Positions 7,557 to 50,515 of a stretch of 64,000 bases of DNA are shown one piece after another (positions within the stretch are counted from its first letter, which is position 1; each line of letters opens with the position of its first letter). The notes under the pieces are model-generated. The model was not told the origin of the DNA. It worked only from the letters and a program-made list of their open reading frames with translations, and did no database searches. Position numbers and translations under genes: made by a program. The stretch spans positions 2,294,001 through 2,358,000 of the forward strand of contig OZ374562.1 in assembly GCA_977862235.1 (NCBI GenBank). Reading direction: 5' to 3'. The DNA is from Dudresnaya verticillata. Taxonomy: Eukaryota.

Positions 7557-7756
7557 TGAGACTTTACGCAATCAGAAATCTCGTACATTTCTCGTGAAAA
7601 GGTATTACAAATTGAACACCTATAATAAACATACGAGATTTACTCAGAGCCCACGAGAACTTTCTCGTCAGATCTGTCAAGTACACGAGAAATGTTTCGT
7701 GTGTTTTCGCGCGAGTTCGGCGCCATATCAGCACCGACTGTGTCTGCCCTGCCCAC

Positions 7757-10018: not shown

Positions 10019-10451
10019 TTTGCCGCCCTGCACCAGGGGCATCAAGGTCAGTACGCAACCTGGCGGGGTAGTACTTACAAATTGATCCACATTCGATTGC
10101 GTAAACGACACTTTATTTTTCCTACCAAATTTCTTACGGTACTCAGGCACGCATGTGTCGACGAGGATTCCACGAGATTTTTGGCGTAAAGTCTCTATTG
10201 ACCTACTTTCCGATTAGTCGTTTTTAATTAACAGAAAATGACACTAAACGCAGGCATATTTAGTCCATTGCACCAGACATCGTATTAATTAGGAACGCTC
10301 ACATCAGTTAAAATGTATGCTATTTTGCGTTTGCCTCGAAAACGACTGTTTTAGTCGGTGCGACCCAGCCGGAGCACACTATCTTTCTCGACTGTTCAGA
10401 TCCGCCGAGAGGCTTCCCTCCCTTCTGCCTCCTCCGGTATCTCCCGCCATC

Positions 10452-11279: not shown

Positions 11280-12298
11280 AGCCAATCCCCCATTCGTTCA
11301 CCATGCGTTGCTTCCTTATATCGCGATTATGTGCCACTCGGTACATCCAGGATGTGCTTTCGTTGCGCTTATACGGCACAACGATATCCCCGTCGCCTGA
11401 AAACCCCATGTCTGCCATGCCGTGCTGTGCACCAGTCAAGTAGCTCTCTCGGTTCTGGTACACATCCGACTCCGTGTAGAGTGTGCGGTCAGACTCCGCA
11501 CCCTCGTCGGTGACCTCAACGCATATGACCAAAGAGATCGCAAAAGACGAGAATAGAGAAACAGTGTGCCTTCTTATATCCATCGTACGCTCGTTCCTGT
11601 GCCGCTGCGTCCTTCGGTCTCCACCTCTTGTTTTTGTTTCCGTCCACGAAGAACACACAGGACGGAAAACCTATCACAAGCTCTTCCATATCCTTTCTCT
11701 CTTCGTGTCCCGGCCATCTAATCAGCGCCGGGGACAGGTCGTCCAAAGCTTTGTGCAGTCCAACGAGCACATGTCGGAAATAGTTCGATATGGAGCCGAC
11801 AGAAAGCCCATACTTCAGAGCGACGTGTTCCAGCCCTTGGCTTCCCTCGTTCGCACCGCCTATAATGTCGAAGAACATGAATAATATTTCTACAGTACCA
11901 AGTTTGCGCTTTCGTGGCGTCCGCAGGACAGCGTCATTCTCGGCGCGCACATTAAATGCCTTCGCCAGTTCTTGTTGGCAGACGCCATGAAGAGCGTCAA
12001 ACGTTTCGCGGGAAAGATGTGTGATCTTCTCAAAGAGGAGTATGCCGGCATCTATCTCGCGCACAAAGTTATAAATTCCGGAAGCTGCTCTTCGGACATA
12101 TGTTGCCTTTCTTCCATCCACACAGTTGCCCCGTCCAGGCCCGACTTGTTCTTCTTCGTCCGACGGCTCGTCTGCTGGTAGGCGATTTGAAAGGGAGGAA
12201 AAGTGGAGGAGAAGGTTACTGGTGTGCTGCAGCTGGGCCTCGCACTGTTGGAACATGGCCAGAGCTGTTAGGATGTCGTCCTCGTCGTCAACGCTCAT
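11102..12298 (-). pseudogene. Harbinger DDE transposase, frameshifted near 11520 with an in-frame stop at 11209-11211
   Basis: FFVDGNKN, YDGYKKAHCFS, MADMGF and RMVNEWGIG motifs are split across ORFs 11516-12298 and 11209-11658. Confidence 0.87.
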
Positions 12299-13346
12299 GA
12301 CTGATGCTCCCCAGCACGGTGGACAGGAATGCGGAGCTCACAGGGCCGGGCGTGTTTACTTCGTACAGTACTGAATCTCGACTACTTCCCTACAATAAAA
12401 AATAACAAATGGACGTGTTTTGGGGGCATTAGAAATAGCACCTCTTTGCGGTAATTAAAAACAGCTATTAGCGCGTAGCGCGTTAACTCCAGGCTTCCTG
12501 CCTTAGACTTGCGAGCGGCTGGTCCGCTGTATAAATTCGTCTTGTATGCTTGGCTCCCTTGCCTTCGGAAGGCGTGCGCGGTGGCGTTGTGCGACCTGGC
12601 GACTCCGCCCTATCCCGTCGGGAACTTAGCGGATTTCATCGCATTGGGTCAGCGCCAGAATAGAGGCAGTGCGTGTCTTGAGCTTGCGTGCTGTGTGGAA
12701 CCAAGCGCCGTGGGACAACCTCTCATTGGGTGATCGGTCCGCCTCCCTGGTGCCACTCGTGGAGTGAGAGGGTGCCAGCAATGCTCTACCGCATGCTACA
12801 GTGGCTTTGAAGAACACTGTAGCCGAAGCTGTGAGACGCTGATTTAGAGACTCCCGATTGGAGCCCCATTCCGCCTCCCTGGCTGTGGTGACCTATCAGC
12901 GGCAGTTGTTCAGCTCTACAGTAACTAGTGGCAGTACTGTAGCGCTTTTTGGCGCGAAGCGAGCGCCTCGCAGGCTAGTCGCGCTGTTGAGCGTGGTTAC
13001 GCGGCCTTGGTTTCGCCCCATGCTCCAGGGGTTAGTGCCAAGGAGGCTTCCCTCAACCAGGACACCATATCTTGGAGGCTCTTCGAGCCTGCTTCGGCAT
13101 TCCTGCCGTAGCCGTAATGGACGCTCAAAGGGTTGGCCCTATTTCAGTTTGTAATGCCCCGTCGGGGGCGCGAAAGCGTGCACGCATACGTCATACTCGC
13201 GAGCAGCGTCACCGAGGTTGGACTTCGACGAAGTTGGTCAACTTATAACGGGGATCGCCCCGGGCATAGGCCCTCACTCAGGATCTAAATCCTCATGTCC
13301 CTCATACGAGCAACGTTCATGGTTCGCCTCTTATCCAGGTAGTGTA

Positions 13347-13463
13347 CAGCTCATCTATCCAGAATCTTAATTCTTGAGTCATCTATCCATTTCAACATCT
13401 ATCCATGTGGCTATACAGCTCATCTATCCAGAATCTCGATTCTTGAATCATCTATCCATTTCC
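13347..13463. repeat. Tandem ~68-bp duplication rich in CATCTATCCA
   Basis: CAGCTCATCTATCCAGAATCT...TTCTTGA.TCATCTATCCATTTC occurs twice. Confidence 0.75.
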
Positions 13464-13734
13464 AAAGTCTTAACTCTTCTATTTCCATCTATACAGTTTG
13501 TTGTTAGACAGCTCATCAGCTTAAAAGGGGGAATGGTCATTCCCATTTCCTATTGTTATACACAGGCCCATTGGCCGTTCTTGTTATCGCTACTGCAGAG
13601 CGTAGTGCTCGTCATCCACAGTGGGTTTACCTCGTTAGGCGCTTATTCGCAACTGCCACTTGCGTTTTCAGGGCCAGGTCTAGCCTCTTCTCGGCGAATT
13701 TGCTCTTCTTGAGCGATGTCCTAGCGTAAGACGC

Positions 13735-16700
13735 TTATAACGGGAGAGCGACCCCTTTGACTCGATGGTATCTTGCCACCAAGTTATGGGGAAGATGTTA
13801 CTTGGGCTCCCAGGTGTCTTCGGATGCTGGGATCTGAAACCACCGAATACGGTAGAGGCGTCGATCGGCGTCATAAGACACAATGCGGTCGTAAACTCGC
13901 TCGCGCGGCGGCGCTTTCTTAAAACGAGAAAACTTCGGCGGGGAAGAGGGGTCGTTCCGCATCGTCGCCGAAGTGCTGGGCGCGGCGGTTCCTGGATCGC
14001 GATCCGGATCGGGAGGGGCCGCAGCGACTGTCTCTTGGGGACTCGGCATGGAGGTTCCATCAGTAGGCGGCACCGCGAGAGTCGGATTATCCGTAATATC
14101 GGTAACTACCTGTCTCTCGGGAATGTGAGGAGCGGTATCCGCATTTGCGCCCTCAACTCGGCCGTCCGGCGACGTCGAGCCTTGTGGCGTGAGGTCCACT
14201 ACTGAAGGGTTTTGACCCTGCGCGCTTGGTTCTTCATGCGGCGAGGGGGCTAAGGTAACCCGGTCCAGAGATATCGTCTCTCTATCTCCTTTGATGTCTA
14301 GAACGACAACGTGCGTTCCACGTTCCAGAACCTTATACGGCCCGAGAGCCTTAGGGAACAACTTCCATTCGCGGGCCACACCTGAAGCGCCCTTCACCTT
14401 CGTTTCCCTCTCTAGGAAAACCCAAGACCCAGGTCTCACTTTCTGGTTAGCCGGTCGAATCCGATTATTGAAATTCGTTTCATAGCGCCGTTGCGCTAAC
14501 TTCATCCGCGGTAAGGCCGTATCCATCAGCTTCTCTAAGCGTAGAGTCAGCCGCTTCTTAACGTTAGTAGCCGGCACTTGGTCGACGTCCACTGTCTCTG
14601 CTTGTTCCATTAAGATGGATGTCGGCAGGTTAGATAACACCATATCGAAGGGCGCCAGGCCTGTAGCCCGATTTACAGTAGTGTTATACGCGTACGTTAA
14701 CGCAGAGGTAAACTCGTCCCAGTCTTTCTGATCTTCGGGGATGAAGTGTCGCAAACCCGCGAGGAGGGTACGATTAAATCGTTCTGTCTGACCGTTCGTC
14801 TGCGGATGATAGGTTGATGTAAACATATTCCCAATTCGAAGGATGTCGCACACTGCGAGGAAGAACTTGGACGCGAATTGCGAGCCATTGTCCGAAAGGA
14901 CGTAACGGGGTGGACCGTATATGAAAACCCAATGCTCGCAGAAAGCCTTGGCCACCGTATAGGCTGTGACTGTCTTCAACGGTATTGCTCTTGTGAGTTT
15001 GGAAAATATGTCAGTCATGACTAGGAGGAACTCATTTCATTTGCCTGAACGGGGCAGGGGTCCAAGGATGTCGATCCCTATGAATTCCAAGGGCAACGTT
15101 GCCGGGAATAACTTCATGCGGGAAGTGTGTTTTCGAAGTTGGACGCGCTCTTGAGCGCACTTGACGCAATTCCTTACTGTCGCGTACACGTCTAGAGACA
15201 TCTCAGGCCAATATACCTGTCGTCGAAGGTTGTGATACATCCTGGTGCCACCAGGGTGGCCGGCCAACTCCGGGTAGTGCGCTAGGTGTAGAACCTTTTA
15301 TTTCAGCGATCTAGGTACGCGTACCTGTAGCGCATGGTCTACGTACGACTTGCGCACCAGGAGTCCTCTCCTATCCTCGAGATAGCAACCAGGCTTACCC
15401 GTCTCGAGGTTCCGCCGGACCCAGATGCAGAAGTCGTCTGATTTTTGCTCTCGGAGCAGCTCCTCCACTGTTATGAGGGAGAGACCCTTCTGTGGTGATT
15501 CCTTGTCGGCCACCTGAGCTATTAGCTGTTCGTCATCCGAAGGGTCGTCGTCCCGAGGTTCGACTTCCAAAATCTCTAAGGGTCGGGGTGGTGCACCCGT
15601 TCGCGGTTTCCGCGTTGGCGACCGTTCGTCGCAGGCGTCCCTTCGATCGTCTTCGATTACAAAACAGGGGATCTCGAGGTCCGGTTCCCACTGGGGAAAG
15701 CCGTAGGTTGGCAGCCGAGAGACGGCATCAGCGATCTGATTCTTCTTTCCTTTTCGGTATTGTACCGTGAAATCATATTCCAACAGGCGTAGCCTCCAAC
15801 GGACCAGTCGCCCTGAAGCATCGGTCATGCTCATCATCCATTTTAAAGCTTGGTGATCCGTATACAGGTCGAAAAAGCGGTCCTGTGGGCCGCTCCAAAT
15901 ATGGACGAAGCATCTGCGTTGCCCAGACCACTGCTAGGCATTCTTTCTCGCCTACCGAGTAGTTCTTTTCCGCCTTCGTTAGGCCGCGGCTCCAAAACCC
16001 TATGGGATGTCGGGTGCCATCTTCTTCCATTTGCATCAATGCGCACCCGATTTGGTAATCACAGGCGTCCATGTCGACGGAGAAAGCCTTACCTTCTTAA
16101 GGGAGCCGCAGTATCGGCGGAGCGACTAATGCTTTCTTGAGAAGTTCAAACGCTTCTCGCTGACGTTCGTCGAACGTTGGCAACTCGAAGCCCTGATCCT
16201 TTTGTAGGAGTTCGTTGAGCGGGGCCGCCACGCGCGCGAAGTTAGGCACGAAGCGCCTGTACACATTACAGATTCCAATAAATGAACGTAACTGGGTCTG
16301 AGTCTTCGGCTCCTTAAACCCTTCGACGGCTTGGGTAGTCTTGGTTGCCACTTCTAGCAATCCTGGGCGGATCACGTGCCCTAAGTAATCAACGCTCTTC
16401 GTGAAGAAGTTGCACTTCTTTAGTTTCAGCGAAACGCCTGCTTCTTGAAGTACTTCTAGAATGTCCTTCACGTGTTTGAGGTGTTCGTCGACCGTCCTCG
16501 AGAATATAATGATGTCGTCCAAATAGACTAAACAGATTTTCCACCTGAATCCGGAGAGTAGGATATCAACCGTACGTTGAAAGTTCGCGGGAGCGTTACA
16601 GAGTCCGAAGGGCATTCTGCAAAACATGAAACATCAGGCATGGCAAGTGAAAGCCGTTTTGTGCTTGTCATCTTCCTCGACTGGAATTTGCCAATACCCG

Positions 16701-18010
16701 GAATTACAATCCAAGGTTGTAAAGTATTGGGCGTTTCCCAGCGAGTCCAGACACTCGTCCATCCGCGGGAGAGGATAAGTGTCTTTCACTGTGATAGCGT
16801 TGAGCTTGCGGTAATCGACGCAGAAACGTAGGGACCCATCGGGTTTCTTGACCAGCACTACGGGGCTTGCGAACTCCGTTCGAGCAGGCTCGATGACGCC
16901 TTCTTTTAGCATCTTGTCTACTTCGTCTTTTTCGACTTGTCTAGTTTTCGGGCCCGACCGATAGGGTTGCGAGAATACAGGTTTCGAACCTTCTTGTAGT
17001 TCAATTCGGTGCTTCGTCACCTTGATTGTTCCCAGCTGGCCGTCCCACATACCGACGAACGGTCGGAGCATTTTTCGTACTCGACGACGGTCCGGCTCGG
17101 ACAGGTGCTCCAGTGCCAAGTCATCGACTGACATAGGAGACGGTGTAGAGGTTGCTGTTTTAATTCCAGGCTTTGCGCCTTCGCTACCAAGAGCAGCAGC
17201 GAGTCCCGCCCCCACACATTCAGCTTACACCGGCGTCCGGGTGGGCGCCGGTACAGCCTTTCCGAGGCTTTGATTCTTCTGAAGCTGCTGCATGCGCGGC
17301 GAGAAGTTCGCAACCTTCACGTGGAAGAGCCGATTCGATTGTAGATCGACGATACCGTTGGTCACAACCACATGTTGACGGTCGTATAACCGTGGAAATG
17401 ATTCTAGGAAGTGCGTTACTTGGGCCGAGCAGGTCACGGCGACCCATGTTTCACTGTCCGGGGGTAAGTTAGTGAGTTCAGCAACGCGGATTAGTCGCGA
17501 GTTAGGTAGGGGTGGGACATCCATTGGTTCCGAAAGGGGACCCTCACGGGGTATGCCACAGCGGCGTCTTAGGATTGGGTGTATCGACCCGTCGCGGAGA
17601 ACGATGTTCTGTTTCCGAACACGTAAACCCTCGACGTGGGTATCGATAAACGTGCATCCCAGGATGGCGTCCACTGCAAGTGCCTTGACGACAACAAAAG
17701 GTTGTCGAACCGTGTATGACCCCACGCGTACAACCAGTGAGATGGTCCCTAGAGTAGTTAGTCTATGACTTGACGCAGACGTCAAGTTGACGATCGACCT
17801 GTTCGTCGAGATGCGTTTCCTTTCTTCCGGAGAAAGAACGTCCGCCCGGATCAGATTAGGGCCAGCCCCTGTATCCAATACGGATAGTACTCGAGTGAGT
17901 TTGTCCACAGAAGTCCCGACGGATGCAGCAACTTCATAGTTGTAGCGTGACAGGGAACAGACTGGGTCCTTACAATACTCGTCATACGTACGCCCACGGG
18001 GTAAGCCCAT
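13735..18010 (-). pseudogene. Gypsy pol (PR-RT-RNase H-INT-chromodomain) with multiple frameshifts and stops
   Basis: LDTGAGPNLI (PR); FCVDYRKLN and YLDDII (RT); DACDYQIG and GEKECLAVVW (RH); GHPGG...CVKC, SDNGSQF, HPQTNGQTER (INT); YDRIV...YRIRW...DTWEP (chromodomain). Confidence 0.95.
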
Positions 18011-18178
18011 GGGGCGGGTTAAGATGTTCTCCGGAACAGAAGCGAAATTCTCATGTGAAACCGGTCGATCCGTGGAGAAGCTGTCGAAGCTTGTGCTAGT
18101 GAAGCTGCGCTCAGCGAATCGATCGGGGGTTCCGATGTAACCTGGGTGATCAGGTCAACCGAAACCGGTTCCCCCTCT

Positions 18179-19430
18179 CTAGTTTTTCGCCTTGAGCGCG
18201 GGCGACCGTGGTAACGGTGGTGGCGGCGGAAAAGGTCGTGACCCTGGTCTTGGTGACCGCGGCGCTTGCCTTGGCGCGTCGATGGAGTGATTCAGACCCG
18301 GATGAAATTGAACTTGCCTATTTCCGCCGGCGCCCGTCCCCATATTTTGACGCGTTCCTGTCGGTGGCCCAATCGCTTGGCCTGTCGAGGCCGGTCCATT
18401 TGCGAAGTAGGGCAGTCGCCCCACAGTTGCCAACCATGCCTTCTGCTCATGCGAGAGCTCTTGGAACTGCTTCCTTTTAGAGTCTCAAAAGAATGTTCGT
18501 CCGTTCGCGCTAGGTGAGGGCAATTTGGCTTTTTATGGCCGACGCCACAACACTCAAAGCGGATGTCATTTGGTTGGTCCTCGACCGTCTCGCCATCCAG
18601 GAAGCTGTGTCTTTGTTGGCTGAGCCAAGGCTGGGAGCCTATGGTTGTAGTTTTGGATGGCCGCATCCACTTCGCCATAATATGGCTGGCCATAGGAGTA
18701 CTGCCCGGAGGACCAGCTGTCTGATTGGGTTGCCGTTGATGGTGGCGCTTCTTCGTCTATAGCCGCGACGACGGCATCTTCGTCGTCGTCCTCAGAGTCG
18801 CTACTCTTTGAGGATTCGGAGTCAGATGCTCCCGATCGCCTCGACTGGCGAATGAGAAGTGCCCGACCAGGTTTGTGCGTCCGTACCTTCGCGAGGGTTT
18901 TCTTGTGCAGCGTCGAGGTCGCTTTCTTCGCTCGGCCACCACCCACTAGGACACGATGAGAATCTCCCTGGGCGGTGGTGCGCTCGACATAATCTGTCAA
19001 CCGGGCCGTCCGTGGGTCCGGAGAGGTAGTGCTTAACAGCGGTTTCACCGCGGGGAGAAGACCCCTAATAAAGTGTGTTATTAAGTCTTGCTCTGTGTAG
19101 ACAACAGCGACTCGTCGCGCCTGATTTTGCAACCGTCGAGAGAAGGTGACCTCGTCCTCATTCGGCTCTTGTGCCATCGTGTCCATATCACAGACGATCC
19201 TCTCGATGTAGACATCTTTCGCATACGTGCGAAGAAGGTAATTGACGGCCTCGGCCCACTCAGTGAATCCACCATTATCATCTCCTGCCGCGTCGAAGTT
19301 CGCTTCAAACATGTCTTTGGCATCTTTCTCCAGAAATTCTGGGATGACAAGGATAGCTGCTCCTTCACTAATGTGAGCTTGGTCCAGCTGTCGTTTCAGC
19401 GTTGCGAGAAATCCAAGAATAATACCGTCG
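18179..19430 (-). pseudogene. Gypsy gag (continues at ~20337-20443 and ~31839 onward, across insertions)
   Basis: ILGFLATLKRQLD...EGAA...AVNYLLRTYA, homologous to the gag at 21947-23341; zinc knuckle CFECCGVGHKKPNC near 18520-18560. Confidence 0.85.
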
Positions 19431-20331
19431 TGTGGTGCAAGGGGAGGTGAGCCCTTTTTCGCTGAAAGCGGGCAGACCAAATACGTCGACCGACGGAGAA
19501 ACCGCCACCGGCGCTCACCACCGCCGTTGGCGCGCGAACACGTCATCGACGGCTCACTGGGGCGCGCGCGCACACTGCGCGCCGCGCGCCACGCGGGCAC
19601 TGTACGGTGATGGCCCGACGTGGCGCCCCGGGGCACTGTAATATGGATCCAGATGGGATCCGGATCCGGTATCCAGATTGGCTATCCAGATCGCCTAAGC
19701 CGTAAGATACGCGCCTATAAGGCTGCGGGTATTCGCATTGCTGGCCCGATCCGGACGGGATCGGGATCGAACAAGTATCGGATTAGATCCAAGGCGCACG
19801 CTCTACAATATGCGCGCGCGCACAGCTGTAAGGCACACGCGTCCACGTGTGCGTGGAAGCACCCACACAGGGGGTTGTACAGCAACCTGTCAGGCGCGCG
19901 GCTGCATGCGATGGGTGATCTGTCAGACGCACCTCGGGACGACACGTGTCCCGAGTTCCCGCGCTACGCACAGGCACTGCCGTCGCCGCACAGCCGTACT
20001 ATACTTAGGTAAGCCGTCCCAGACATAACAGTAAACGCCCGGGCAAGCCGGCCTTGGTCCAGACTTCCCGTTCCGCACGCGCGTACCCTACCGCTGCCTA
20101 CGGCTCAAGCGTCTACCTCCCGTGCTTCCACGTCTACCATCGTCCTTGACGTGTTCCCTTTCTGTTTCCTTTTCCCTTCCTTTCCGCCTCGGGCGTTTAC
20201 AGTCCGCCCAAGGCGTGTCCTTTGCTCTACCAACAAGTCGCCCACGGCGAGGCTACTCACCGCCAAGGGCGCAGCTACCCACCGAGCCCCGAACTGCTCG
20301 GCGGTCTATCGTCTCAGACGTTTGCACCAAA
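19431..20331. mobile_element. Solo LTR, same family as 901-1804
   Basis: TGTGGTGCAA...TTGCACCAAA; TSD CGTCG (19426-19430 and 20332-20336); colinear with 901-1804. Confidence 0.94.
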
Positions 20332-20448
20332 CGTCGTTTTCGGGGTTACGGGCGATTCTGGCCACGCAGTCTTTGCGTAATGCGCGCCAGTACAGCCCGT
20401 ACAAGGACGTATCATTTTGTACAGATATTACGATAACCTGTTGAGGTT

Positions 20449-21123
20449 TGTGGTGAAGTGAGCCGTGGCGCGCATGCGGCCCACCGACGGCGAGCCAACC
20501 GTAACGGGTGATGTGGCAATACGCCACGCTGATGATCTGGCAACGTGTAACCGTGTCGGATGTTGTGCGCATTGCTGTACGCCGGTACGCATTGCTGTAC
20601 AGCAGTGAAGCGCACCAACCATACCGGAGTATTTGTAGTGTTTATTCTTTATTTTTAGTGAGTATCTGTACAGTATGTAGAGTAGTGCGCCAGCCAATGA
20701 GAATGCTGCGCATGTCCGTGTCGGAGATTGGGACCAGCAGGGCCGATTCCACCATAGGACCAGACCACTAGGGTCTGGCCCCCACGGACTGGACCGCTCG
20801 GTGCCACCTTGACTTGTATATCAGGGCGGCACCGCAGCGGCTCCTAAGGTAAACGGGTAAGCAACCTTAGCCCAATCCTTTACGGTTTTCCCCGCGCCGA
20901 GCCCGTTGCGGTCTACCACCACCACCGTTACGGAGTCCGTCCCGGCACTCGTACCACCCCCTTGTCTGTTGCTTCCCAATATCCGTCTCGGTTAGCCGCT
21001 AGCTGTTCTCCCGTTACGGTGCGAACTGCTCTACCACCCCGTGGAAGTAGTGTTGCTCTCGTCCGTTAAGGAAAGTCAGGCCAGCTGTCCGTCTCGGAGT
21101 TCGTGGGTTTTCACTACACCACA
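20449..21123 (+). repeat. 5' LTR of the inner Gypsy element
   Basis: TGTGGTGAAGTGA...TCACTACACCACA; direct repeat of 31151-31833. Confidence 0.97.
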
Positions 21124-21271
21124 TCTTTTGGTCTCCCGACCTAGAACACCGTCACGGTTGGAAGAAACAGCCGTCGAAATCCGCTACGGTAGGAATTCGG
21201 CTGTACCGACAACCCGTTACGGAATATTGGATAGACAAGCAAGAACAACCGTTGTGTTCCGTTAAGGTATC

Positions 21272-23744
21272 ATGCAGAACGAAGAACACGCAGACCCTCC
21301 CGTTACGGAACCTAAAGCGGGTGGCACTACCCCGGCTGCGCGCAGTCTGCGCAGTGAAGGAGGTGAAATCCGTTCCGGAGTGGAGAACCCACAAGACATC
21401 CTAAAGGGTGCTGCTGGTAAAGCTCCCCGTTCCCGTGTCGGATCAGACGCCTCCAAGAAGGCAGCTCCGCAACCCAAGCCGGAATCCCATCGGGTCCACT
21501 GGGTCCTGTCGGAGGTCCTTCCTAGGGTGTTAGAGCATCTCCGATTGGAAGTACAACCTGGAATGGTAAAAGAGGTGGAGATATCCCTCTCGGAAACTGT
21601 TCCGTCTTTGGTTAATTCCTATCTGGAGCAGCACCTTCCTCGGATAGTGCAAGCTCTGATCCTACAGGAAAAGGTGGCCGCCGAGCTCGAGAGCCAGATT
21701 GCTCCCGGCATGGCAAGGCCTCCCGCTACGGAAGCTTTCACTGAGCAACCACCGTTACGGAATGACTTCCCGGTCGAGGGAAGAATGCAGCAGCCGCAAC
21801 AACCCCCCGTTATGGGATTGCCGCCGGGCACAGTACCCTCTGGGCCACTGTCACCGGCTCCCGTAACCGATTCTCAACATCAATAAGCCCCTACGGGACC
21901 AACACACACTCAGCCACCGTTACGGTATTCACCTGGACACGTAGATATGCCTACGCCAGGGCGCTATCAGCAAGAGCGCTATACCGTTCCGGTTCGATCA
22001 GGTGGAGGCAGCGACCATCTCAGCGATGCGTCCAGCTCACCCCATCCGAGTCGGAGGACCGGTCGAGGTCGGCATAAACGAGATGCCCGACACTCCCGCT
22101 CTGACCCTCCCCGTCGGTCGCACATGGGCGACCACACCCAGCGACGACGCCACCAATCCGGTAAGGAATCCAATGAGAGCAGCTCAGAGGATAGCCAACA
22201 CCGCCGCCGCAAGAGGAGAAACAGAAGATCGCGGAAACGCGAAAAAGGGCATGAGTCCTCTACCTCTACGGATTCAGACTTAGAGAGTTCTTCCATAACG
22301 GATAGAGAGAATAGGCACCGGGCCAGAAAACACGGTGCCAATTCCGGAAAGGTGAAGGTAATCCGGCCGCTACATGACAAGTTTGTCAAGGCGCTGGACT
22401 ACCGCACCTACCGATTGGATAAGAGGAGTAAGACATACGGCTCTAAGTTCTCACAGAACATGAGCCGTAGGAAGAAACTCGACGTCCAGATGTCGTCCCA
22501 TACATTCGATGGGACGGACCCTATTACCGTCTTGGGATTTCTCGCCAAGTTCCGTGACGGTTGTAACATCAACGGCATCGCCGAAGGGGTTGCCGTCTGG
22601 TGCTTGCAGTTTTTCCTTAAAGGACAGGCCGAAGCCCTTCTACAGGCTAGGCTTGCTGGAGGTACCACGGCGGTTGACGTGGAGCAGGCTGAGATGCTCC
22701 GCACATATTCCGAGGTGGTGAACTTTTTATTGAGAACCTACGCTACGGATGAAGTGATTGCTGAAGCCTGTACGGATGTCAGCAACTTCAGGCAAACATC
22801 CGCCATAACGGAAGAGCAGTTCTCGAACCAGCTTTGGGCCAAGGCTCTCCGTTGCGGTACAGTATTTTCCGATCGGGCATTGAAGTCACTGTTCGTCGAA
22901 GGACTCCTACCGGGCACTCGTCAACAGATGAGAAATTATCTGGCGACGCATTCCCAGTTGGATTATCAGGCCATCACTCGCTATGCGACTGGCCCCGGTC
23001 AGTCCCATCGGGCAGCTCGACGCCAAACCGTTCCGGCTCACGTCTTTGATGGGCGTAATAAAGCACGCCCGTCTAAGGTGTTGTCGCTGGATTCCGTATC
23101 GGATATACACTATGAGCCGCAAGGGAATCTTTCCGCTACGGATAATCAAGTGCTAGCCGTCGAGGGAGGCCACGGTGCCGCTACGGGAACGAGCACGGGG
23201 GTTACCTTTTCTACCCCGTACTCCTCGCCCCCGCAAAGCGTCCACCCTACTCCGCCCAGGATGCCACGCGCGCATGGTCCCCCCTATGGTGGATCTCGCC
23301 CGGCTCCTGGCCCCCAACAGCAGTCACCGTTACGGAAATAATGCCCACGATGGGCGAGGACAGCAGCAACCAGCACCTCCGCTACGGGATGAGTCGGATC
23401 CTCGGGTCCGACGCCTTTCAGGGAGTGGTAACTGTCGCATCTGCCTTTCACCAGAGCACGTTGTTTGTCCCTGAATACATGACTCCGATCGGGTTAGGCT
23501 TATGGAAGAGCGCGAGCGCAACTTCCAGAAACACTACCCTGTAGGTCGCAGGTTCGTAGTAGGAACCAGTTCGAATCCGCAAGGGAATCGGGGCAGGCCG
23601 CAAACGCCCCCTCCGCAACGGAATGCCCCGATACTATCGGTGGAGGACCATGACGGAGTGGAACTCGCAGAATTGCGCGAGCCCATGGAGGCGGATCCGA
23701 CTGGTGCAACCTTGAATTCGGAAAACTCAAGGGGGGATGCGTAA
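21272..23744 (+). pseudogene. gag of the inner Gypsy element (in-frame stop at 21884-21886, frameshift before ~23340, stop at 23472-23474)
   Basis: ORFs 21272-21886 and 21947-23341 share a frame; FDGTDPITVLGFLAKF gag motif; knuckle-like CRICLSPEHVVCP in a shifted frame. Confidence 0.87.
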
Positions 23745-23788
23745 GGGCGCCGCCATCCCCGCCTCACGGCGTTCCACCTCTCGCGAGT

Positions 23789-24454
23789 GTGGACCCGCCA
23801 GGGGATCGGCGAGATACCGTTACGGAACTCCCATTGGCTTATCAGACCAATGATACTATCTTCTTTATGCAACATCAAAATTACAAGATGCAAATTACCG
23901 TAGGACGGACAGATACCGTGATGCTTCCTTTAATCCCCGTCTTGGACTCTGGCGCTGGGCCCAATCTCATTAGTGCCAGGCGCCTTCCGCGCCAATGGCT
24001 CCCACTCATACGCCCAGCAGCCAGTCCTCCATTACGGGATGCGTCTAATCGCGCTATACGCCCTCTTGGTCAGATACAACTTTTCGTCCGTATCGGAGAG
24101 CTCCGTGCTCGCGTCCAGTTTCTAGTGGTCGCCAACTTGGCGGCTCCCTGTATTTTGGGAACTACCTTCATCGGCCGCTACGTGAAGGCAATACTCCCTC
24201 CGTTACGGAAAGTTGTTTTTCATCATTACCCACCGGTATCCCTTGTTGGTCAAGCCAAAATTCCGAAGACGGGAACCACTGCAACCCTACAGCCCTCACC
24301 TCTCTCTACCACTACGGTTTCTCAGAAAATTCGTTTAGCAAAATCTACCCTTATTCCCCCTATGAATCAAACCACCGTACCGGTTAATACCCCATGGGTG
24401 GGTTATGCTTTCTACAAAATCATCCTAAGCCGGCTTTTAAGCACCTTACGTTAA
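23789..24454 (+). pseudogene. Aspartic protease of the inner Gypsy element (frameshifted from RT)
   Basis: VLDSGAGPNLI and CILGTTFI retropepsin motifs. Confidence 0.9.
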
Positions 24455-24533
24455 TGGCTAATGGTATTATGGATGTTGTACCTAACAACCGTTTCGGATC
24501 TGGGTCTCTAATTTTTCTAACAAGCCGGTACGG

Positions 24534-27500
24534 TTGCCCAAATCTACTGTCGTGGGCCTCGCTACTGCTGCCCCCTCTGCTATTTTTACCGTTGACGGTA
24601 TACCTCCATTTAAGGAGGGGGGAGGAATTATTCAATCATTTAATTCTAACCCTACCTCCGAAAAGGCCAGCAGCATCTCCCCTCACGACAAGGAAGTAAG
24701 CAAACCCGTAACGGAAAATACAAATACTACCGACTGGAAGGATCAAGTCCAGATCGGCACAGAAGAAGCATCGCTCCGCAAACGGATTTTAACCCTACTC
24801 GAGGAATATAAGTCGATGTGGAGTGGCGATCTGGGCAACATTACAGCTGCCAAGCACCGCATCGAGTTAACTCCCGGAGCTAAGCCAGTATACCAAGCCC
24901 CATACCGTGCCGGACATAAGCAGCGAGATCTCGAAAAGGCAGAGATCGATCGCATGCTTTCCGCTAAGGTAATTGAACCAGCCTCATCGGAGTGGGCCAG
25001 CCCCGTGGTTTTCGTTCCAAAAAAGGACGGCACCATGCGGTTCTGTGTTGACTATAGAAGGCTCAATTCCGTAACGGTTAGGGACTCATATCCCTTGCCC
25101 AGGATGGATGAGTGCATAGATTCCCTTGGGGAAGCTACTGTATTTACCACCCTGGATTGCAATAGCGGATATTGGCAAGTCGAGATTCCGGAAGAGGAAA
25201 GGGACAAAAATACCTTCACTAGCCATTTTGGCTTATACCGTTTTCGGAGAATGCCATTCGGATTGAAAAATACACCGGCAACCTTCCAACGGGCAGTTGA
25301 TATAATCCTTTCTACGGTTAAATGGCAATTTGCCCTCGTCTACCTAGACGATGTAATTGTCTACTCAAAAACCGTTACGGAACATTTCCACCACCTGAAG
25401 GAAGTCCTTACGCTTTTACGATCCGCTGGAGTAACGTTGAAATTGTCAAAGTGTGACTTCTTTAACGCGTCTGTACAATACCTGGGGCATGTTATCCGTC
25501 CCGGAAAATTAGAAGTGGATAATCGAAATATCCAATCCGTTAAGGTCGCGAAGCCGCCGACTAACCAAACGGAATTGCGATCCTTCTTGGGAATATGCAA
25601 CGTGTATCGTCGCTTTGTACCCAACTTCACTCGGATTTCAGCTCCGCTAAATAACAAAACCGGCAAGGGCTCACCCTTTGAGTTTGGAATATTATCCGAT
25701 ACGGAATATGAAGCCTTCGAAGAACTGAAGAGACGCCATATCTCTCCACCTATATTAGATCTACCCCGTCACGGATATAAATATACGTTGGACACGGACG
25801 CATGTGACCACCAAGTCGGCTGTGTCCTTCTGCAGGAACAACCGAATGGCGATCAACTCCCTATTGGATATTGGAGCCGAAGCCTCACCGATGCGGAGAA
25901 AAATTATACGACAACCGAAAAGGAATGCTTAGCCGTGGTCTGGAGCATTTCAACACTCCGACCCTACCTTTACGGTGACAAGTTTATTCTCCGAACGGAT
26001 CACGATGCCCTGCGGTGGATCCTGAACCTCGCAGACTCATCTGGCCGCCTTGCCAGGTGGAGGCTCCGCCTATCGGAATTTGAATTTGAGGTGCAATACC
26101 GTCCTGGAATTAAGCATCAACTCGCCGATGGGATGTCGCGACTCCGAACGGATGGCGGTGACGATAGACCTTTGGATGAAGAGATACCCTGCTTTATCGC
26201 CGAAAATACCGTCGACGGATTATATGAGCATGGAGTTTCTTTAACCGATTGGGCTACATCACAAGAAACCGCTACAGAAAATAACGTAATATGCGCCGTG
26301 GAGCCCGCCAGTGGGAGCGCATCCGCCTCCCCTGATAAGCCCGACGCAATACCGTCACGGTTTACTGTAATCCAAGAATCCGACGTTAAGGATGAGACAA
26401 TTACCAGGGAGGAGTTCCTCGAAGCGCAAGCCAGAGACCCTTTCTGCCGTCTCAAAGCCGATACGGTAGGCTCCCCTGGATCACAGTTTGACTATGACCG
26501 TAACGGATTCTTGGTACGCAAGTCCCAATTGGATGGCGCTCTACAGAAGGTGGTGCCAAGCGAACTCCGTGGACGGGTATTGTATTTATCCCACTACACC
26601 CTGATGTCGGGTCACCCAGGCGGCATTAAGATGTATTATACACTCCGACAGGATTATTATTGGCCTCATATGGCCAACGACGTATTTGAATCCGTTCGGA
26701 CATGTCGCTCCTGCGTGAAGACAAAGGGAACCCGCTTTCGGAATCAAAGGTTTATGAAACTTTTCCCCGCTAGCGGACCTTTGGAGTTTGTCGCTATCGA
26801 CATTCTCGGGCCACTTCCGAAGACAAAACGGGGTTATGTCTACGTCTTGGTAATTACCGATCGGTTCTCTAAGCTGACGCGCTGTATTCCGTTACGGACA
26901 ACAACAGCCGTTGTGGTGGCTAATGCCTTTCTGGACTTTTGGGTGTACGCCTACGGCGCACCCCAATTTGTCCTAACCGATAACGGACCGCAGTTTACTG
27001 CTAAGTTCTTCGACGCGGTGTGTTCCTTACTCGGATTCAGGCACCTGCTCACAGCTGCCTATCATCCGCAGACAAATGGGCAAGCCGAGCGATTTAATAA
27101 GACAATCGCCCAACGGTTGCGCCATTACGTCGAGGATCATCACTCCGATTGGGATTTGCACCTGCAGCCGTTGACATATGCGTACAAAATGCAGGTACAC
27201 CGTATCACGGAAACAACGCCATTCAATTTGGTGCTGACACGCCACCCATCGGATATTGTTGTACGAGGGGCTCCTGTCGAGCATCAAGAAACCGTTACGG
27301 AAGGGCGTATGACCCCGGTGCTACAGAAGCGGAGCACCATGCGCCGTTTACGGTACGCGCTCCAGACAGCGCGCACAAAGCCGACAGTGGCTCAGCAAAA
27401 AGCCAAGGCACTGTTTGACCGTAAGGTGCGCTTTAGGCCCATAATCCGAAGCGGAGATCAAGTCTATGTCGACCGGCCGCCCCATAACTTGCGGCCGGCC

Positions 27501-28061
27501 GAACGCCGTGAGCGGGACCGATTGGAAGGCAAACCGGACGATGTGGGCGAAGTGGCTCAGGAAATGAAGAAACTCCTTCCGAGAGCCACGGGGCTTTATG
27601 AAGTGGAATCCGCAACGGAACATGTCGTGACAATCCACAAGGAAGGGGTATTGATCCCCGTGAGTATCGATCGCATCACGAAGGTTCCGATCGGAGTTGC
27701 GGTTCAGCCGGCACCCTTAACAGTGCCGCCTGTCACGCCATCAACCGTCTACGGAGAAGTAGTGCCACATCCAGAAGGTACTACAGTAGTACCTCCTTCT
27801 GAAGGTACTACTCCCTCCGCGACGGAACCACTGCAAGCCGATACGGAATATGTGATCGACAAGATTGTCGGTCACCGCGACGAACCTACTGGGATGACAT
27901 ACAAAGTCCGCTGGTATGGTTACCCTCCGGATCAGGACACTTTTGAGCCCGCGGAGGAGTTACCGCAGAACTTCATCTACCGATATTGGAAGCAAAAGAA
28001 AAATACATCCGCTAAGGGTAAGCCACGGCGACGTGCTAATCCAGCAAGTCACTCACCGTAA
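24534..28061 (+). CDS. Gypsy pol: RT-RNase H-integrase-chromodomain (1175-codon open frame)
   Basis: FCVDYRRLN, YLDDVIV, TDACDHQVG, TEKECLAVVW, H-x4-GHPG...CRSC, TDNGPQF, HPQTNGQAER, EYVIDKIVGHR...YKVRWYGY...DTFEP. Confidence 0.96.
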   Translation: MPKSTVVGLATAAPSAIFTVDGIPPFKEGGGIIQSFNSNPTSEKASSISPHDKEVSKPVTENTNTTDWKDQVQIGTEEASLRKRILTLLEEYKSMWSGDLGNITAAKHRIELTPGAKPVYQAPYRAGHKQRDLEKAEIDRMLSAKVIEPASSEWASPVVFVPKKDGTMRFCVDYRRLNSVTVRDSYPLPRMDECIDSLGEATVFTTLDCNSGYWQVEIPEEERDKNTFTSHFGLYRFRRMPFGLKNTPATFQRAVDIILSTVKWQFALVYLDDVIVYSKTVTEHFHHLKEVLTLLRSAGVTLKLSKCDFFNASVQYLGHVIRPGKLEVDNRNIQSVKVAKPPTNQTELRSFLGICNVYRRFVPNFTRISAPLNNKTGKGSPFEFGILSDTEYEAFEELKRRHISPPILDLPRHGYKYTLDTDACDHQVGCVLLQEQPNGDQLPIGYWSRSLTDAEKNYTTTEKECLAVVWSISTLRPYLYGDKFILRTDHDALRWILNLADSSGRLARWRLRLSEFEFEVQYRPGIKHQLADGMSRLRTDGGDDRPLDEEIPCFIAENTVDGLYEHGVSLTDWATSQETATENNVICAVEPASGSASASPDKPDAIPSRFTVIQESDVKDETITREEFLEAQARDPFCRLKADTVGSPGSQFDYDRNGFLVRKSQLDGALQKVVPSELRGRVLYLSHYTLMSGHPGGIKMYYTLRQDYYWPHMANDVFESVRTCRSCVKTKGTRFRNQRFMKLFPASGPLEFVAIDILGPLPKTKRGYVYVLVITDRFSKLTRCIPLRTTTAVVVANAFLDFWVYAYGAPQFVLTDNGPQFTAKFFDAVCSLLGFRHLLTAAYHPQTNGQAERFNKTIAQRLRHYVEDHHSDWDLHLQPLTYAYKMQVHRITETTPFNLVLTRHPSDIVVRGAPVEHQETVTEGRMTPVLQKRSTMRRLRYALQTARTKPTVAQQKAKALFDRKVRFRPIIRSGDQVYVDRPPHNLRPAERRERDRLEGKPDDVGEVAQEMKKLLPRATGLYEVESATEHVVTIHKEGVLIPVSIDRITKVPIGVAVQPAPLTVPPVTPSTVYGEVVPHPEGTTVVPPSEGTTPSATEPLQADTEYVIDKIVGHRDEPTGMTYKVRWYGYPPDQDTFEPAEELPQNFIYRYWKQKKNTSAKGKPRRRANPASHSP

Positions 28062-28356
28062 CGGACAGTTGGAATGCTGGGGTGTGAGAACACACAACGT
28101 TTATCGCAAGCTAAGATCGAGGCATAATGGAAACCGTTAAGGAGATCGTCGAGCTGTAACTCTAAGAGTTACGTCGACCCCGTTTCGGAGCAGGGGCAAC
28201 TGTATCTTCCTTGTTGCTCCCCTGACCCGTTCGTAGGCCGGGTTCCCCACTCGGATCCGATTGGAATACGCGCTGCGTAGTGTCTCCCAAGACGCGAACC
28301 GCACTGTCCATGCGCCGACGCTGACGACGGACCACCGCGCGGAGATGAATTACCTG

Positions 28357-30843
28357 TTACATCAGCCCCTCCGTTAAGGTTAACACTTCCTGAACGGATC
28401 CTGGTAATGGGAAGCGCTGCGTACGGCAAATGCCCCGTAGCACCTGTAACCCACTTTCCGTAGCGGCTAAATGAGCCGGAACCGTAACGGGGGGATCCTC
28501 ATCTTCTTGTAACTCTACCTTCGGGGAGATCGACGGCTGATCCCTAACCCCGGCTTCAAGTGAATGCTCCGTTGAGGAAACTACCGATACGGACGGTCCC
28601 GACTCGGGTGAAGGTACGTCCTTCCGCAGCGGTGGATCTGTGTCCTTCTCTGGCGAGGCAGTATCGCTTTTCCGTAACGGTTCAGGACTTGGCGCAAGAA
28701 CCGAGGGCTTGTCGCCAGTTGCCCCAACACTTGGGCGCCTTGCAGCCACTTCCGATACGGTGATCGACGCCGCATTCCCCGCTGGTGTGGGAGTGGGCGG
28801 CAAAAGCGGAGCACTTGGTGGGGGCGGTTCCGCGGCGGCAGGCATTTGCGTCGCAGGAGACAGTGTCGCCCGCACAGTATCCGGCGCCACTTCCGAAACG
28901 GTCTGCCCCTTTGAGGCCCCCTTCTCGGATGGTGCCGCAGACTTGGGCACCGCCATAGTCGGCGCAGCCACGCCCATGGGCGTTGGGGCCTTATCCGATA
29001 CGGGAGTAGTAGTCTCACGATCCACATCGCGCGACGTGGGTGTCGCGACCACCGGAAAAATTGGAGCGGGCGTCTTCTCGCTACCCGCTACCATCGAGGC
29101 GACGGGCGTGACCTCCTCCTGTTCTTCCAAGAAGGGGTCAGCTTCTTGCTGCCTCACCGTAACGGAATCGCGTGGGTCGATTGTACGCGGACGCCCCGCT
29201 GTCCCATGACAGCTTCCCCAATCTTCAGCCCCATCCAAACCGTCACGGTACGCATCCCTTGGTGCTTGGCGAGAGGCATAGTCCCGATGGGCCTGCACCT
29301 CTAAGGCCAACCATTCCGGACGCGGATCTTCTCGATGAAGGAAATATGGCTCACCCACCCCGGGCCTAAGCGGAGGCACCGATAGGACACGGTCCTCGTC
29401 CCAATTATACCCCAAGAATCCCGGAGTGCGTTGCCAATCTTGCTCTCCGTGTACGGATAAAAGACGCTCAACCCGATGGAGAGGGTATGCCGACCCCGTC
29501 ACCAAATCGGCTACGCCGACTTCGCGAATTAGGGCGATCACCGTTACGGGAAGTTGAAAAATACGGCCACAGTCTCCTCCAGGCAGGTCATCCTCATCCC
29601 GTGGGAAACATCGCCAGTCCGCTAACTTGGTGTTATACCGTACTCCGTAATAGGCCACCTGGAGCCACGAGAAGAGCACCAGCATGGCCCATTCCGATCG
29701 GAAGATTCGCCACAGTACATCGAGCTGATCTTGGTTCGGGGGACGTTCTCCGTTCGGATGCTTGTCGTTCCACTCCCGTTCGGTGAGTAAGTCCGCCGAG
29801 AAGTACGCTACGACGGACGGCGTGGGGACAGACAACCAACGGGTCACCTCATAACGCGCCCACCATGACGGAGCTGTAAGGTACAATTCACGACGCACCC
29901 GATACGGAAGATGGAAGAACTCCTTAGTGTTCCAATTATGCAGGATTGGCGAGCCAACTTGTATTCCGTCACGGGAAAGAGTTCGCAAACGGTGTTCCGT
30001 CGCGGCATCGTCCTTCCACCCATCGGCATAGCGGAACCAATATACCGATTGGTCATAGGGGCGGTCGAAGCAAATGAATTGCACTCCGACCGGCGCACCC
30101 CGAAGACGGAAACCTGTGGCCAACAGGTGACTCACCTAGGCGGTATATCCTACCTCCCCATGGCAGCGATACCACAACAAATCCGAAACGGTAGAGGTTC
30201 TCGCTTGACAATAGCCATGCACCCATCGGCTTTGCCACACAAACTCTCTCCGATTCGGAACAACGCCAATGCGTTGATTCGCCTTGAAGGGTTGCGCCAT
30301 GACGGCCTTGTACCTTCTCGCTTCCAAGACGGTTGGATACTTCTCAATGAAGAGGTCCACCGTCATCGGGGGCCTAATCTTAGCCCTTTCCGCATCGGTT
30401 CTAGCCGGGCGCCCCGCGCGATGGTCAAAGTGGTGTCCCGGCCAATAACCACTCGGGGCAGGGCCCTCTCCGTCACGGGTATGCACTAACGGCCACCAAG
30501 GCCCCGGTGCAGGTGGGTTGCTTTGCGGGGGGCCACGCATCCGTCTCGGTGTACTTGAGGAGGGATGAGGACTGGAAACCATCCTACGACTCGGCGTCGA
30601 TACCGGTGTCGATGGTGTCCGTAACGGAATGGCCGGTAGGTTTGCCAAGTTGAGCTCCTCGCCAGCACGACGGAACGCATCATCGCGCTCCTTGGTTGGC
30701 GCCTCTCCGTCACGGTGAGTCTCTGCACTCCCTGGTAGCAAGGGCCTTGTGGCAGCGCTCGCAGCAAACCGATTCGGATCATAGACAGACCACCCTCGGC
30801 TCGCTGATGGAGCCGGTGAAGGTTCCGTCACGGCAATGCTCAT
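28357..30843 (-). pseudogene. Extra antisense ORF of unknown function (~828 codons, one in-frame TAG at 30136-30138)
   Basis: ORFs 30136-31407 and 28357-30135 are contiguous and in frame; plausible ATG at 30843; Trp/Tyr-rich globular middle followed by a P/S/T/A-rich tail; lies between pol and the polypurine tract. Confidence 0.8.
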
Positions 30844-31150
30844 ACGACCGCCCGTCGCGGGTCGCGTCGCTGCCGCTGAGGTAGAAGCCGGCGCTTGCGT
30901 CGAAGCATCCGTAACGGTTCGCGCGCCCTGCGCCCGCGTAGTGGAAGCGGCGCGGGAACGCCGTGTCGGTTGAAAAGGCGACGGTGAGCGCTTGATCTTC
31001 TCCCCTGACGTGGTGGGAGAAGCGCGCAAAAAGGGGAAGGGGTTGATGAGAACACTTCCGTATCGGGCGTGGCTGTGTGTGGGAGTGGAAGAAAAGGTAA
31101 TCCGTGACGATGGGCGCCCGAGGACGTGGCGCCATTTAAGGAGGGGGGCC

Positions 31151-31833
31151 TGTGGTGAAGTGAGCCGTGGCGCGCATGCGGCCCACCGACGGCGAGCCAA
31201 CCGTATCGGGTGATGTGGCAATACGCCACGCTGATGATCTGGCAACGTGTAACCGTGTCGGATGTTGTGCACATGTGCGCATTGCTGTACGCCGGTACGC
31301 ATTGCTGTACAGCAGTGAGGCGCACCAACCATACCGGAGTATTTGTAGTGTTTATTCTTTATTTTTAGTGAGTATCTGTACAGTATGTAGAGTAGTGCGC
31401 CAGCCAATGAGAATGCTGCGCATGTCCGTGTCGGAGATTGGGACCAGCAGGGCCGATTCCACCATAGGACCAGACCACTAGGGTCTGGCCCCCACGGACC
31501 GGACCGCTCGGTGCCACTCTGACTTGTATATCAGGGCGGCACCGCAGCGGCTCCTAAGGTAAACGGGTAAGCAACCTTAGCCCAATCCTTTACGGTTTTC
31601 CCCGCGCCGAGCCCGTTGCGGTCTACCACCACCACCGTTACGGAGTCCGTCCCGGCTCTTGTACCACCCCCTTGTCTGTTGCTTCCCAATATCCGTCTCG
31701 GTTAGCCGCTAGCTGTTCTCCCGTTACGGTGCGAACTGCTCTACCACCCCGTGGAAGTAGTGTTGCTCTCGTCCGTTAAGGAAAGTCAGGCCAGCTGTCC
31801 GTCTCGGAGTTCGTGGGTTTTCACTACACCACA
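31151..31833 (+). repeat. 3' LTR of the inner Gypsy element
   Basis: Direct repeat of 20449-21123. Confidence 0.97.
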
Positions 31834-32118
31834 AGGTTCTCAAAGAAGGGGCGTCAATCCGCGACTAGGATGTGCTCGTTGAACTTAACAAACCACCACG
31901 GCGGTAGGGGTGCTTGCACTAGATTTGACGTGACTCCAGCGCTTGATATGAAGCTTAGGGACCGTTGTCACCCGGATGACTAGGGTTTTAACGTCAGGTA
32001 GTCGAACATTGAGATCTTGCAGGGACAAAACTCGATCCTTGAAAATTCCAAAGCGATGGACTGACGTTGAGGTAATAAAGGGAACCGACCCAGAACCGAT
32101 TCTAGGTCCGGAAACCAC

Positions 32119-45108: not shown

Positions 45109-46154
45109 TAGTTTGACCTAAGTGCGTGTTGTTCGCGTTTGCTCTGAAGAATATATCAGATGGTAGATAGACGCGGAGTGTCTATAAAAGAAGCGACACC
45201 GAGTCATCGGAAAAGCAGTATCAGATTGGGTATCGCGGAGAGGTATGCGCTTACAACGAGCGAGAATGAGAATACTCAAAAGGTATTCGCAGCTGGAGAT
45301 CTCAGGAGCATTGTTGCTTCCTACTAAGCCACTTGCTGATATCAATAGTGCATACGACTTTGGCTCCTGTTTCTGAATATCGCCGCTTCTCTCGAACTTG
45401 TTTGGGACTTTAAGAGCTTACTCTGTCATTCTAATCTTCTCTCTCCCTCTCCCTCCCTCTCCCTCCCTCTCTCTCTCTCTGCAAGACGCATACTGTAAAA
45501 CTCTGGCTGCATGAGCCGACTGGCGGGTGACAAAGAGGAGGTTTATGTGGCTGGGGCTGTGCGTTCTGAATATCTGCGGAGACGCTCTACAACACAGCTT
45601 GAAACAGCGCGAAATGCATGACAGTTGTTGTTGATGGTGCTGTTGTACAGCCTGAGACTGTGATATGTTACGCACGTCAGAGACGAGTGCGTGATTAAAC
45701 GCTGGTGCTTGCACACGGTTGGCGCAAGGCGTGTGGTGTGTGTATGTGTGTGTGTGTGTGTGGTCAGCACCGGGACAGGTAGTACGTATTGATAAACACA
45801 GCGCGCGCTCATAAACGCTGTGCCGCGGGGTTGCAGGCGGGCAGGCCGCGCAATACTGCATGGGATCGGATCGGCGTGGGAGAAGATGCGGGCCGCGGCC
45901 GAGGTGCGCATGGCGTCGCAACCAGGTGCGGGGCATGTTGTTGTTGCTTGCGACGCCCCGGCGGGAAGACACACACACACACACTCTCTCTCTCCGCAAC
46001 TCTCTGCGCCTCTCTGCAGCGCCCTGCAACGCTCGCCGCGGAAATAGGCTCTCCCGCGCCCGCGCCAAGGGCGTGCGAAGCGCTTGGCGACAAGACGGAC
46101 AAGTCCAAATACAGCTGCATCGAGCCGTCGCAAACGCAAAACGTGAACGAAGGA

Positions 46155-46275
46155 ATACACGTGCACAGCGCAGCCGCGCTCCCAATGCACGTGTACGTAA
46201 AGCCATTTCCCTCCATTTAGCCCAATCAGCGCTCCCCGTCTCTCACACAGTCTCGAGACACCCGTCGTATAAAAC
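46155..46275 (+). promoter_or_regulatory. Putative Pol II promoter (two CACGTG boxes, CCAAT, TATAAAA)
   Basis: CACGTG at ~46158 and ~46188, CCAAT at ~46222, TATAAAA at 46268-46274, about 100 nt upstream of ATG 46376. Confidence 0.5.
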
Positions 46276-46375
46276 AACGTCCGCCGCCCTTTCTCTTCGT
46301 TCCCGCTCCGCCCCCCCCCCCCCCCCCCCCCCTCCCGACCCCATCCGCCGCACTCCACGGCACCCGCTCCATCCG

Positions 46376-50310: not shown

Positions 50311-50465
50311 TGTCGGTTCAGCTTGGGGTTGTTGGTCCGATGTCGGCCCGAAGTGGGCACAGGTTGGACCGGAGGGGTAGTTCTTGAGATGATAACCGGC
50401 CTCGGCACGCGGTGTGCTGCGTACGGAGGTCGAAGCACACGCCGAGGGCCGGGGCGTATCGTGCT

Positions 50466-50515
<50 letters not shown>

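Follow-up and report, generated by a model that had tools for sequence, protein, structure and literature searches.

Results

A chromodomain Gypsy element with an ORF running antisense between its pol gene and 3' LTR

The 64,000-nt stretch of Dudresnaya verticillata DNA analysed here (hereafter the window) carries a Gypsy LTR retrotransposon at 20449-31833 on the plus strand, with a large ORF on the opposite strand between its pol gene and 3' LTR (Table 1). The element has the paired TG...CA LTRs, 5-bp target-site duplication, polypurine tract and PR-RT-RH-INT order of pol that place it in Ty3/Gypsy, and its integrase end carries a Chromo domain (Pfam E 1.9e-10, residues 1122-1169), as in chromoviruses. 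The LTRs are 97.8% identical, with 7 substitutions in 675 columns. This copy is broken by a stop in gag and by a frame change at the protease-RT junction, and a Pfam scan of the gag region returned no gag match. Chondrus crispus supplied one Pol relative among the 120 matches listed, and it grouped with the window element at support 99 in a quick Pol tree that had long-branch outgroups and was built without named chromovirus reference lineages. The grouping points to a florideophyte red alga as the likely host.

Table 1. Features of the Gypsy element and its antisense ORF, in window coordinates
Feature	Position	Strand	Basis or remark
Target-site duplication AGGTT, 5 bp, left copy	20444-20448		identical 5 bases at 31834-31838
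5' LTR (TG...CA), 7 CCGWNWCGG	20449-21123	+	7 substitutions in 675 columns against 3' LTR
Palindrome CCG-N3-CGG, n = 94 (64 CCGWNWCGG; 25 CCGTWACGG)	20499-31807		in LTRs, spacers and all ORFs
Primer-binding-site-like stretch, begins TGG	21129-21141	+	putative role, from position
gag region, 1 in-frame stop at 21884-21886	21266-23341	+	putative gag, from position
Aspartyl protease region, frame differs from RT in this copy	23654-24454	+	weak gag-asp_proteas match, E 0.013; frame shifts relative to P0003 and P0010
pol: RT, RNase H, integrase, chromodomain	24486-28061	+	Pfam RVT_1, RT_RNaseH, Integrase_H2C2, rve, Chromo
Antisense accessory ORF of 893 codons, interrupted in frame by stops at 236 and 829	28162-30843	-	frame reading, family profile, stop simulations
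Basic C-terminal cluster, NLS-like (predicted)	28165-28185	-	sequence
C-terminal helical hairpin and start of coiled-coil helix, common to homologues	28300-28464	-	profile match across stop; P0123 model helices 458-474 and 482-535
Second premature stop TAA, codon 829, earlier taken as ORF end	28357-28359	-	family profile read across
Conserved core of ~360 aa, residues ~135-495, mostly helical	29359-30441	-	family search, alignment, model; no known family or fold matched
Premature stop TAG, codon 236, within conserved core	30136-30138	-	39 of 117 blastp matches span it
Polypurine tract	31138-31148	+	sequence
3' LTR, 7 CCGWNWCGG	31151-31833	+	paired with 5' LTR
Target-site duplication AGGTT, right copy	31834-31838		same as left copy

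Other mobile-element sequences surround this locus. An element at 51585-58960 was called Copia-type by eye from its gag zinc knuckle and from an integrase that precedes RT. The sequence immediately upstream is a 1.27-kb inverted duplicate of its 3' internal part (50317-51588 against 56747-57975, 95%), accompanied by a long G run, and represents either a rearrangement or an assembly artefact. ORFs for DDE_Tnp_4 (PIF/Harbinger-like) transposases were found at 8888-10213 and 11516-12337 (minus); the ORFs at 7616-8716 and 60523-61680, without Pfam match, may be transposase partner genes, and an 890-codon frame at 45815-48487, also without Pfam match, is probably a host gene among transposons. Two LTR-like pairs, 901-1805/19431-20332 (87%) and 5666-6356/32119-32811 (97%), are interleaved and not nested, which makes independent insertions or solo LTRs the probable explanation.

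The antisense ORF spans 893 codons and two premature stops

A preliminary description of this locus had reported about 830 codons broken by a single TAG. Reading the minus strand from 30843 to 28357 indeed yields 828 residues, interrupted by a TAG at codon 236, but the TAA that had been taken as the end of the ORF is premature as well. Past it, the frame continues for 64 codons to 28162. The family profile scored 7.7 bits on the C-terminal helix before the TAA and 14.7 bits when this stop was read as X, and the extension ends in a basic cluster, which 9 of the 26 full-length representatives of the family also show, compared with 6 of 535 control ORF ends. Because the 64-codon extension matches both the family helix and the basic end, the gene is best read as 893 codons with two stops. 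The remaining outline was as first described: the ATG is 308 nt inward of the LTR start at 31151 (about 300 nt had been given), the ORF converges on pol, and both the aromatic- and Arg-rich core and a P/S/T-rich tail are present. Upstream, the frame stays open into the LTR, up to 31530; outside the LTR, its first ATG is the one at 30843.

In the region separating pol from the 3' LTR, the ORF frame contains 4 stops compared with 26-35 in the other five frames, and every one of 200 Markov simulations produced at least 6 stops per 893 codons; the ORF is therefore not a chance frame. Two stops in the gene are nevertheless somewhat high, since LTR divergence is estimated to predict under one new stop since insertion. 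The gene may already have been lost in the parent copy, or the excess may come from assembly errors.

The ORF belongs to a conserved protein family

The ORF had been called an orphan, and this view has to be given up. An exhaustive HMMER search with the 320 residues after the first stop recovered 107 protein clusters (defined at 50% identity) at E<=0.001, 20 of them at E<=1e-10, whereas word-indexed searches at the protein level gave nothing beyond the query itself. When the stops were read as X, 117 of 119 family proteins matched the ORF, and 39 aligned across the TAG, so both halves belong to one gene; some family counts leave out P0145, a repeat-rich match. Among 30 representatives looked up, two bear species names: a Gracilariopsis chorda member, of which five loci have nearly identical copies, and a Gracilaria changii member, an ORF from a transcriptome. 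PXF39757.1 of G. chorda is an intact homologue. Loci from a degenerate-pattern scan (4 viral, 66 metagenome) all proved to be chance matches by profile search; related-locus scans of viral contigs gave none that was confirmed.

Family members share a layout of a disordered start, a core of ~360 aa in which Asp, Arg, Glu, Pro and aromatic residues are conserved, a disordered linker, a helical hairpin with a coiled coil and, often, a basic tail; the four ORFs P0245-P0248 have basic clusters at all four ends. AlphaFold2 modelled the window core from 33 sequences with a pLDDT of 85 and a pTM of 0.87, and a model of the intact homologue P0123 has a confident core whose helices follow the same order. 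A Pfam scan of the ORF matched no family, and scans of 33 and 51 members gave only coiled-coil-type or isolated weak matches among the best 25 of 81 families. The best E against PDB sequences was 0.27, Foldseek searches of PDB and BFVD left the core without a match, and a VIA fold search of the core against 48,161 chains reached a best Z of 2.8, with residues 295-365 barely covered. Fold searches with the P0123 model returned only generic coiled coils, and the ESM Atlas held no usable match. As modelled, the core is probably a new fold, a missing match alone being no proof of novelty.

Homologues occupy the same antisense position in other Gypsy elements

A Pol scan of prokaryote genomes returned 38 loci, including Gypsy contigs that contaminate bacterial bins. 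ORF homologues occurred in one of five such genomes searched, G001, at three places. This bin is titled Algimonas and has 33 Gypsy Pol matches on ~20 contigs, evidently eukaryotic contamination. At two of its loci, gag and pol are followed by a whole antisense ORF, of 1007 codons in L114 and 853 codons in L112 (E 2e-22 and 1e-15, respectively, against the family profile). Contig ends cut two others, leaving the C-terminal half of the ORF in L075 and the ORF tail in L115, and L113 is a contig with the ORF only. L112, L114, L075 and L115 (G001 contigs C50, C60, C90 and C65) formed one clade, separate from the window element, in the quick tree. The ends of L112 overlap by 55 nt, a feature expected of a collapsed multi-copy element. 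At the other Gypsy loci no ORF was visible, though most of them stop 0.4-2 kb after pol.

Over 427 codons, the ORFs of L114 and L075 differ at 0.47, 0.34 and 0.65 of first, second and third codon positions, with dS saturated; the highest value at third and the lowest at second positions is the pattern that purifying selection would leave. In addition, 3 of 45 ORF records equal Pol records in exact source-contig size where 0.3 would be expected, a coincidence that lends indirect support to linkage. Conservation of the family, the recurrence of its antisense placement in four further Gypsy families and the codon pattern together indicate that the gene is an old, maintained part of these elements, and so bear out the proposal that it is an accessory gene.

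A short palindrome is dispersed through the whole element

The preliminary description had drawn attention to the motif CCGTWACGG. It occurs 25 times in the element and 0 times in the remaining 52.6 kb of the window. The wider palindrome CCG-N3-CGG was counted 94 times in the element compared with 8.7 expected, strictly at a spacer of 3, and CCGWNWCGG 64 times in the element compared with 7 elsewhere in the window. Within coding regions there are 43 CCGWNWCGG sites, in all three phases, compared with ~3 after synonymous shuffling; the palindrome is embedded in three reading frames through codon choice. Its density is highest in the LTRs and around the antisense ORF. The sequences flanking the copies are unrelated (mean identity 0.33), and the only tandem seen was a single unrelated one of 27 bp; tandem duplication is therefore not how the copies spread. 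Furthermore, the inner and flanking positions of the 94 sites lack covariation between the arms, and the motif thus behaves like a duplex site read by a symmetric protein.

The motif also leaves traces in the encoded peptides, at 9.7 per 1000 aa in the window ORF compared with at most ~4 in any of 40 long homologues, and its imprints in Pol relatives fall partly in shared columns. Of the seven CCGWNWCGG sites outside the element, four fall within LTRs of the Copia element (51585-58960), an element devoid of this ORF. These LTRs (51585-52128 and 58416-58960) contain four CCG-N3-CGG sites each and are 75-76% like the Gypsy LTR over 205 and 107 nt. The LTR likeness and the shared motif suggest either LTR exchange between superfamilies or one factor used by both.

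ORF-bearing relatives carry a different symmetric element

No copy of CCGTWACGG was present in the four ORF-bearing relatives, and the motif is therefore not a family-wide target. Instead, L112, L114, L075 and L115 carry a perfect 12-bp inverted repeat, CNNC-N4-GNNG, that runs through coding sequence, with 34, 37, 46 and 20 copies in the four elements compared with 4-6 expected; the ORF-only contig has 6 compared with 2.3 expected, and each of 18 sequences outside the clade, the window element included, has 0-6. The arms of this repeat covary (14/25, 18/25, 14/20 and 9/12 complementary), which fits a hairpin better than base read-out. G-U and A-C pairs on the sense strand were nearly balanced (99/100, 119/114, 71/84 and 154/148), and with little or no G-U excess the signal looks strand-symmetric.

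A strong private symmetric element is hence present in each of the two lineages that showed the ORF in context. An ORF-motif link appears suggestive on this comparison of two independent lineages, in both of which the pattern was picked post hoc. Looser inverted-repeat excesses were found in the window's second Gypsy element (12400-20332) and in Gypsy loci without a visible ORF; in this element and in L116, L117, L119, L076 and L078, short perfect inverted repeats with loops of ~3-10 nt are enriched (z up to 10). This excess is absent from the window's two Copia-type elements and from the element at 20449-31833.

Discussion

Proposed function of the antisense gene

The window ORF is best read as a conserved accessory gene in a decayed state. 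We propose, with a probability of roughly 0.4, that its predicted nuclear product would bind the symmetric sites of its own family and keep that family active. The gene belongs to chromodomain Gypsy elements, likely those of red algae. An antisense transcript would start from the 3' end of the element, the basic tail would direct nuclear import, the coiled coil would allow oligomerisation and the core would bind the palindrome; the bound protein might then activate the element or counter silencing. With many sites per element, family specificity could arise from site density, in the manner described for VANC21 (PMC5735166). More tentatively, the product may be an antisense-encoded DNA-binding protein of new fold, specific to a lineage of red-algal LTR retrotransposons, that reads family-private palindromes made by point mutation across the whole element, coding sequence included. 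Such a system would be a retrotransposon counterpart of VANC self-recognition and anti-silencing, in which the protein and its motif would diverge in parallel from one family to the next.

Relation to known systems

That Gypsy elements can carry antisense accessory ORFs was recognised years ago, with no function assigned to these ORFs (PMC11963269). The closest in position are those of Retand/Tat elements (TRP28; maize Grande, rice RIRE2), which are kept across families, for which DNA binding and regulation were proposed, and whose Grande product is nuclear (PMC11963269). Like TRP28, the window ORF is antisense between pol and the 3' LTR. However, Retand elements are non-chromoviruses of flowering plants and contain tandem arrays, whereas the window element has a chromodomain, groups with Chondrus crispus Pol and contains dispersed palindromes; TRP28 was absent from the Pfam results for the ORF and from the best 25 of 81 families listed for its members.

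In its logic the proposal resembles VANC and TE-borne PMD proteins (PMC5735166; PMC6719617; PMC5418596; bioRxiv 2024.09.27.615353). VANC is a transposon accessory protein of VANDAL elements paired with a dense, family-private motif of 8-9 bp to which its binding was shown (PMC5735166). The window motif is likewise short, family-private and dense in its element, and here binding is proposed. VANDAL elements, however, are DNA transposons and not LTR retrotransposons, and their motifs are non-palindromic, mainly non-coding and tandem-spread, whereas those of the window are palindromic, lie in coding sequence at 43 sites and have unrelated flanks. No match to DUF1985, the VANC domain, was seen. 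PMD-A is encoded by Gypsy elements, and host PMD-C has been tied to DNA motifs, with an anti-silencing role proposed (PMC5418596; bioRxiv 2024.09.27.615353). The PMD domain (PF10536) is of similar size, with 347 profile positions, but PF10536 gave 0 matches at E<=1 in G001, where three long homologues lie, and none among the Pfam results listed for the ORF and its members. As to fold, the models had no match in the PDB, a library that may lack PMD and VANC structures.

Among accessory genes of red-algal transposons, Plavaka PAG1-3 are also comparable, and PAG3 adjoins inverted-repeat arrays, with binding to the element that encodes it as the proposed role (bioRxiv 2025.02.11.637652). Plavaka elements differ in being class II, and our Pfam scans showed neither the methylase nor the SET domain that PAG2 has. 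The ORF family thus matches Retand TRP28, VANC and PMD in position or logic and none of them in sequence.

Alternative readings

The gene may be genuine yet unrelated to the palindromes, a reading that we consider possible though doubtful. The motif would then be read by a host transcription or chromatin factor or be the product of a mutational drive, and the protein would do another nuclear job, such as helping integration or blocking silencing generally. The relatives that keep the ORF without CCGTWACGG and the sparser peptide traces of the long homologues are in keeping with it, and a host factor explains equally well the motif in the LTRs of the ORF-less Copia element. Against it, both in-context ORF lineages have a private symmetric element and other loci show neither pattern; moreover, non-element DNA of the window lacks the motif.

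An improbable alternative is that the protein binds short hairpins in element RNA or single-stranded cDNA, either in a Rev/Tat-like manner, a comparison made for the Retand antisense ORFs (PMC11963269), or as an aid to packaging or reverse transcription. The repeat of the related clade, with its 4-bp stem, 4-nt loop and covarying arms, would suit such a role, CCG-N3-CGG could fold as a 3-bp stem with a 3-nt loop, and the core is rich in aromatics and Arg. The lack of covariation at inner and flanking pairs of the window's 94 sites and the strand-symmetric signal in the related clade speak against it.

That the ORF encodes an env-like or structural protein, or is a captured host gene or an unused transposon piece such as Plavaka PAG1, is very improbable: red-algal accessory genes reportedly move between transposon families and PAG1 has no known domain (bioRxiv 2025.02.11.637652), the window copy has two stops and genomic context is established for a minority of the 107 clusters, but open frames of 850-1000 codons hold the same position in divergent Gypsy families, ORF and Pol records coincide in contig size more often than expected, and the gag-pol of the window copy is likewise broken. 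An env identity had already been discounted in the preliminary description, and the ORF has no membrane anchor; this exclusion rests on hydropathy (best 19-residue Kyte-Doolittle mean 1.58, no strongly hydrophobic segment), antisense orientation and the basic tail, with signal peptides judged without a dedicated predictor.

Significance

In the literature covered, that outside subscription journals and repeat databases, the ORF family and the motif are undescribed in red algae. To judge from sequence, this is a real accessory-gene family with a testable candidate target. The antisense accessory gene here comes with such a target inside its own element, a 9-bp palindrome present 94 times, which opens the question of its function to a binding assay. 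The family would contribute what is probably a new fold, together with a set of naturally paired proteins and motifs. Should the ORF product turn out not to read the motif, it would still have to be explained why a single retrotransposon family has a palindrome forced into three of its reading frames.
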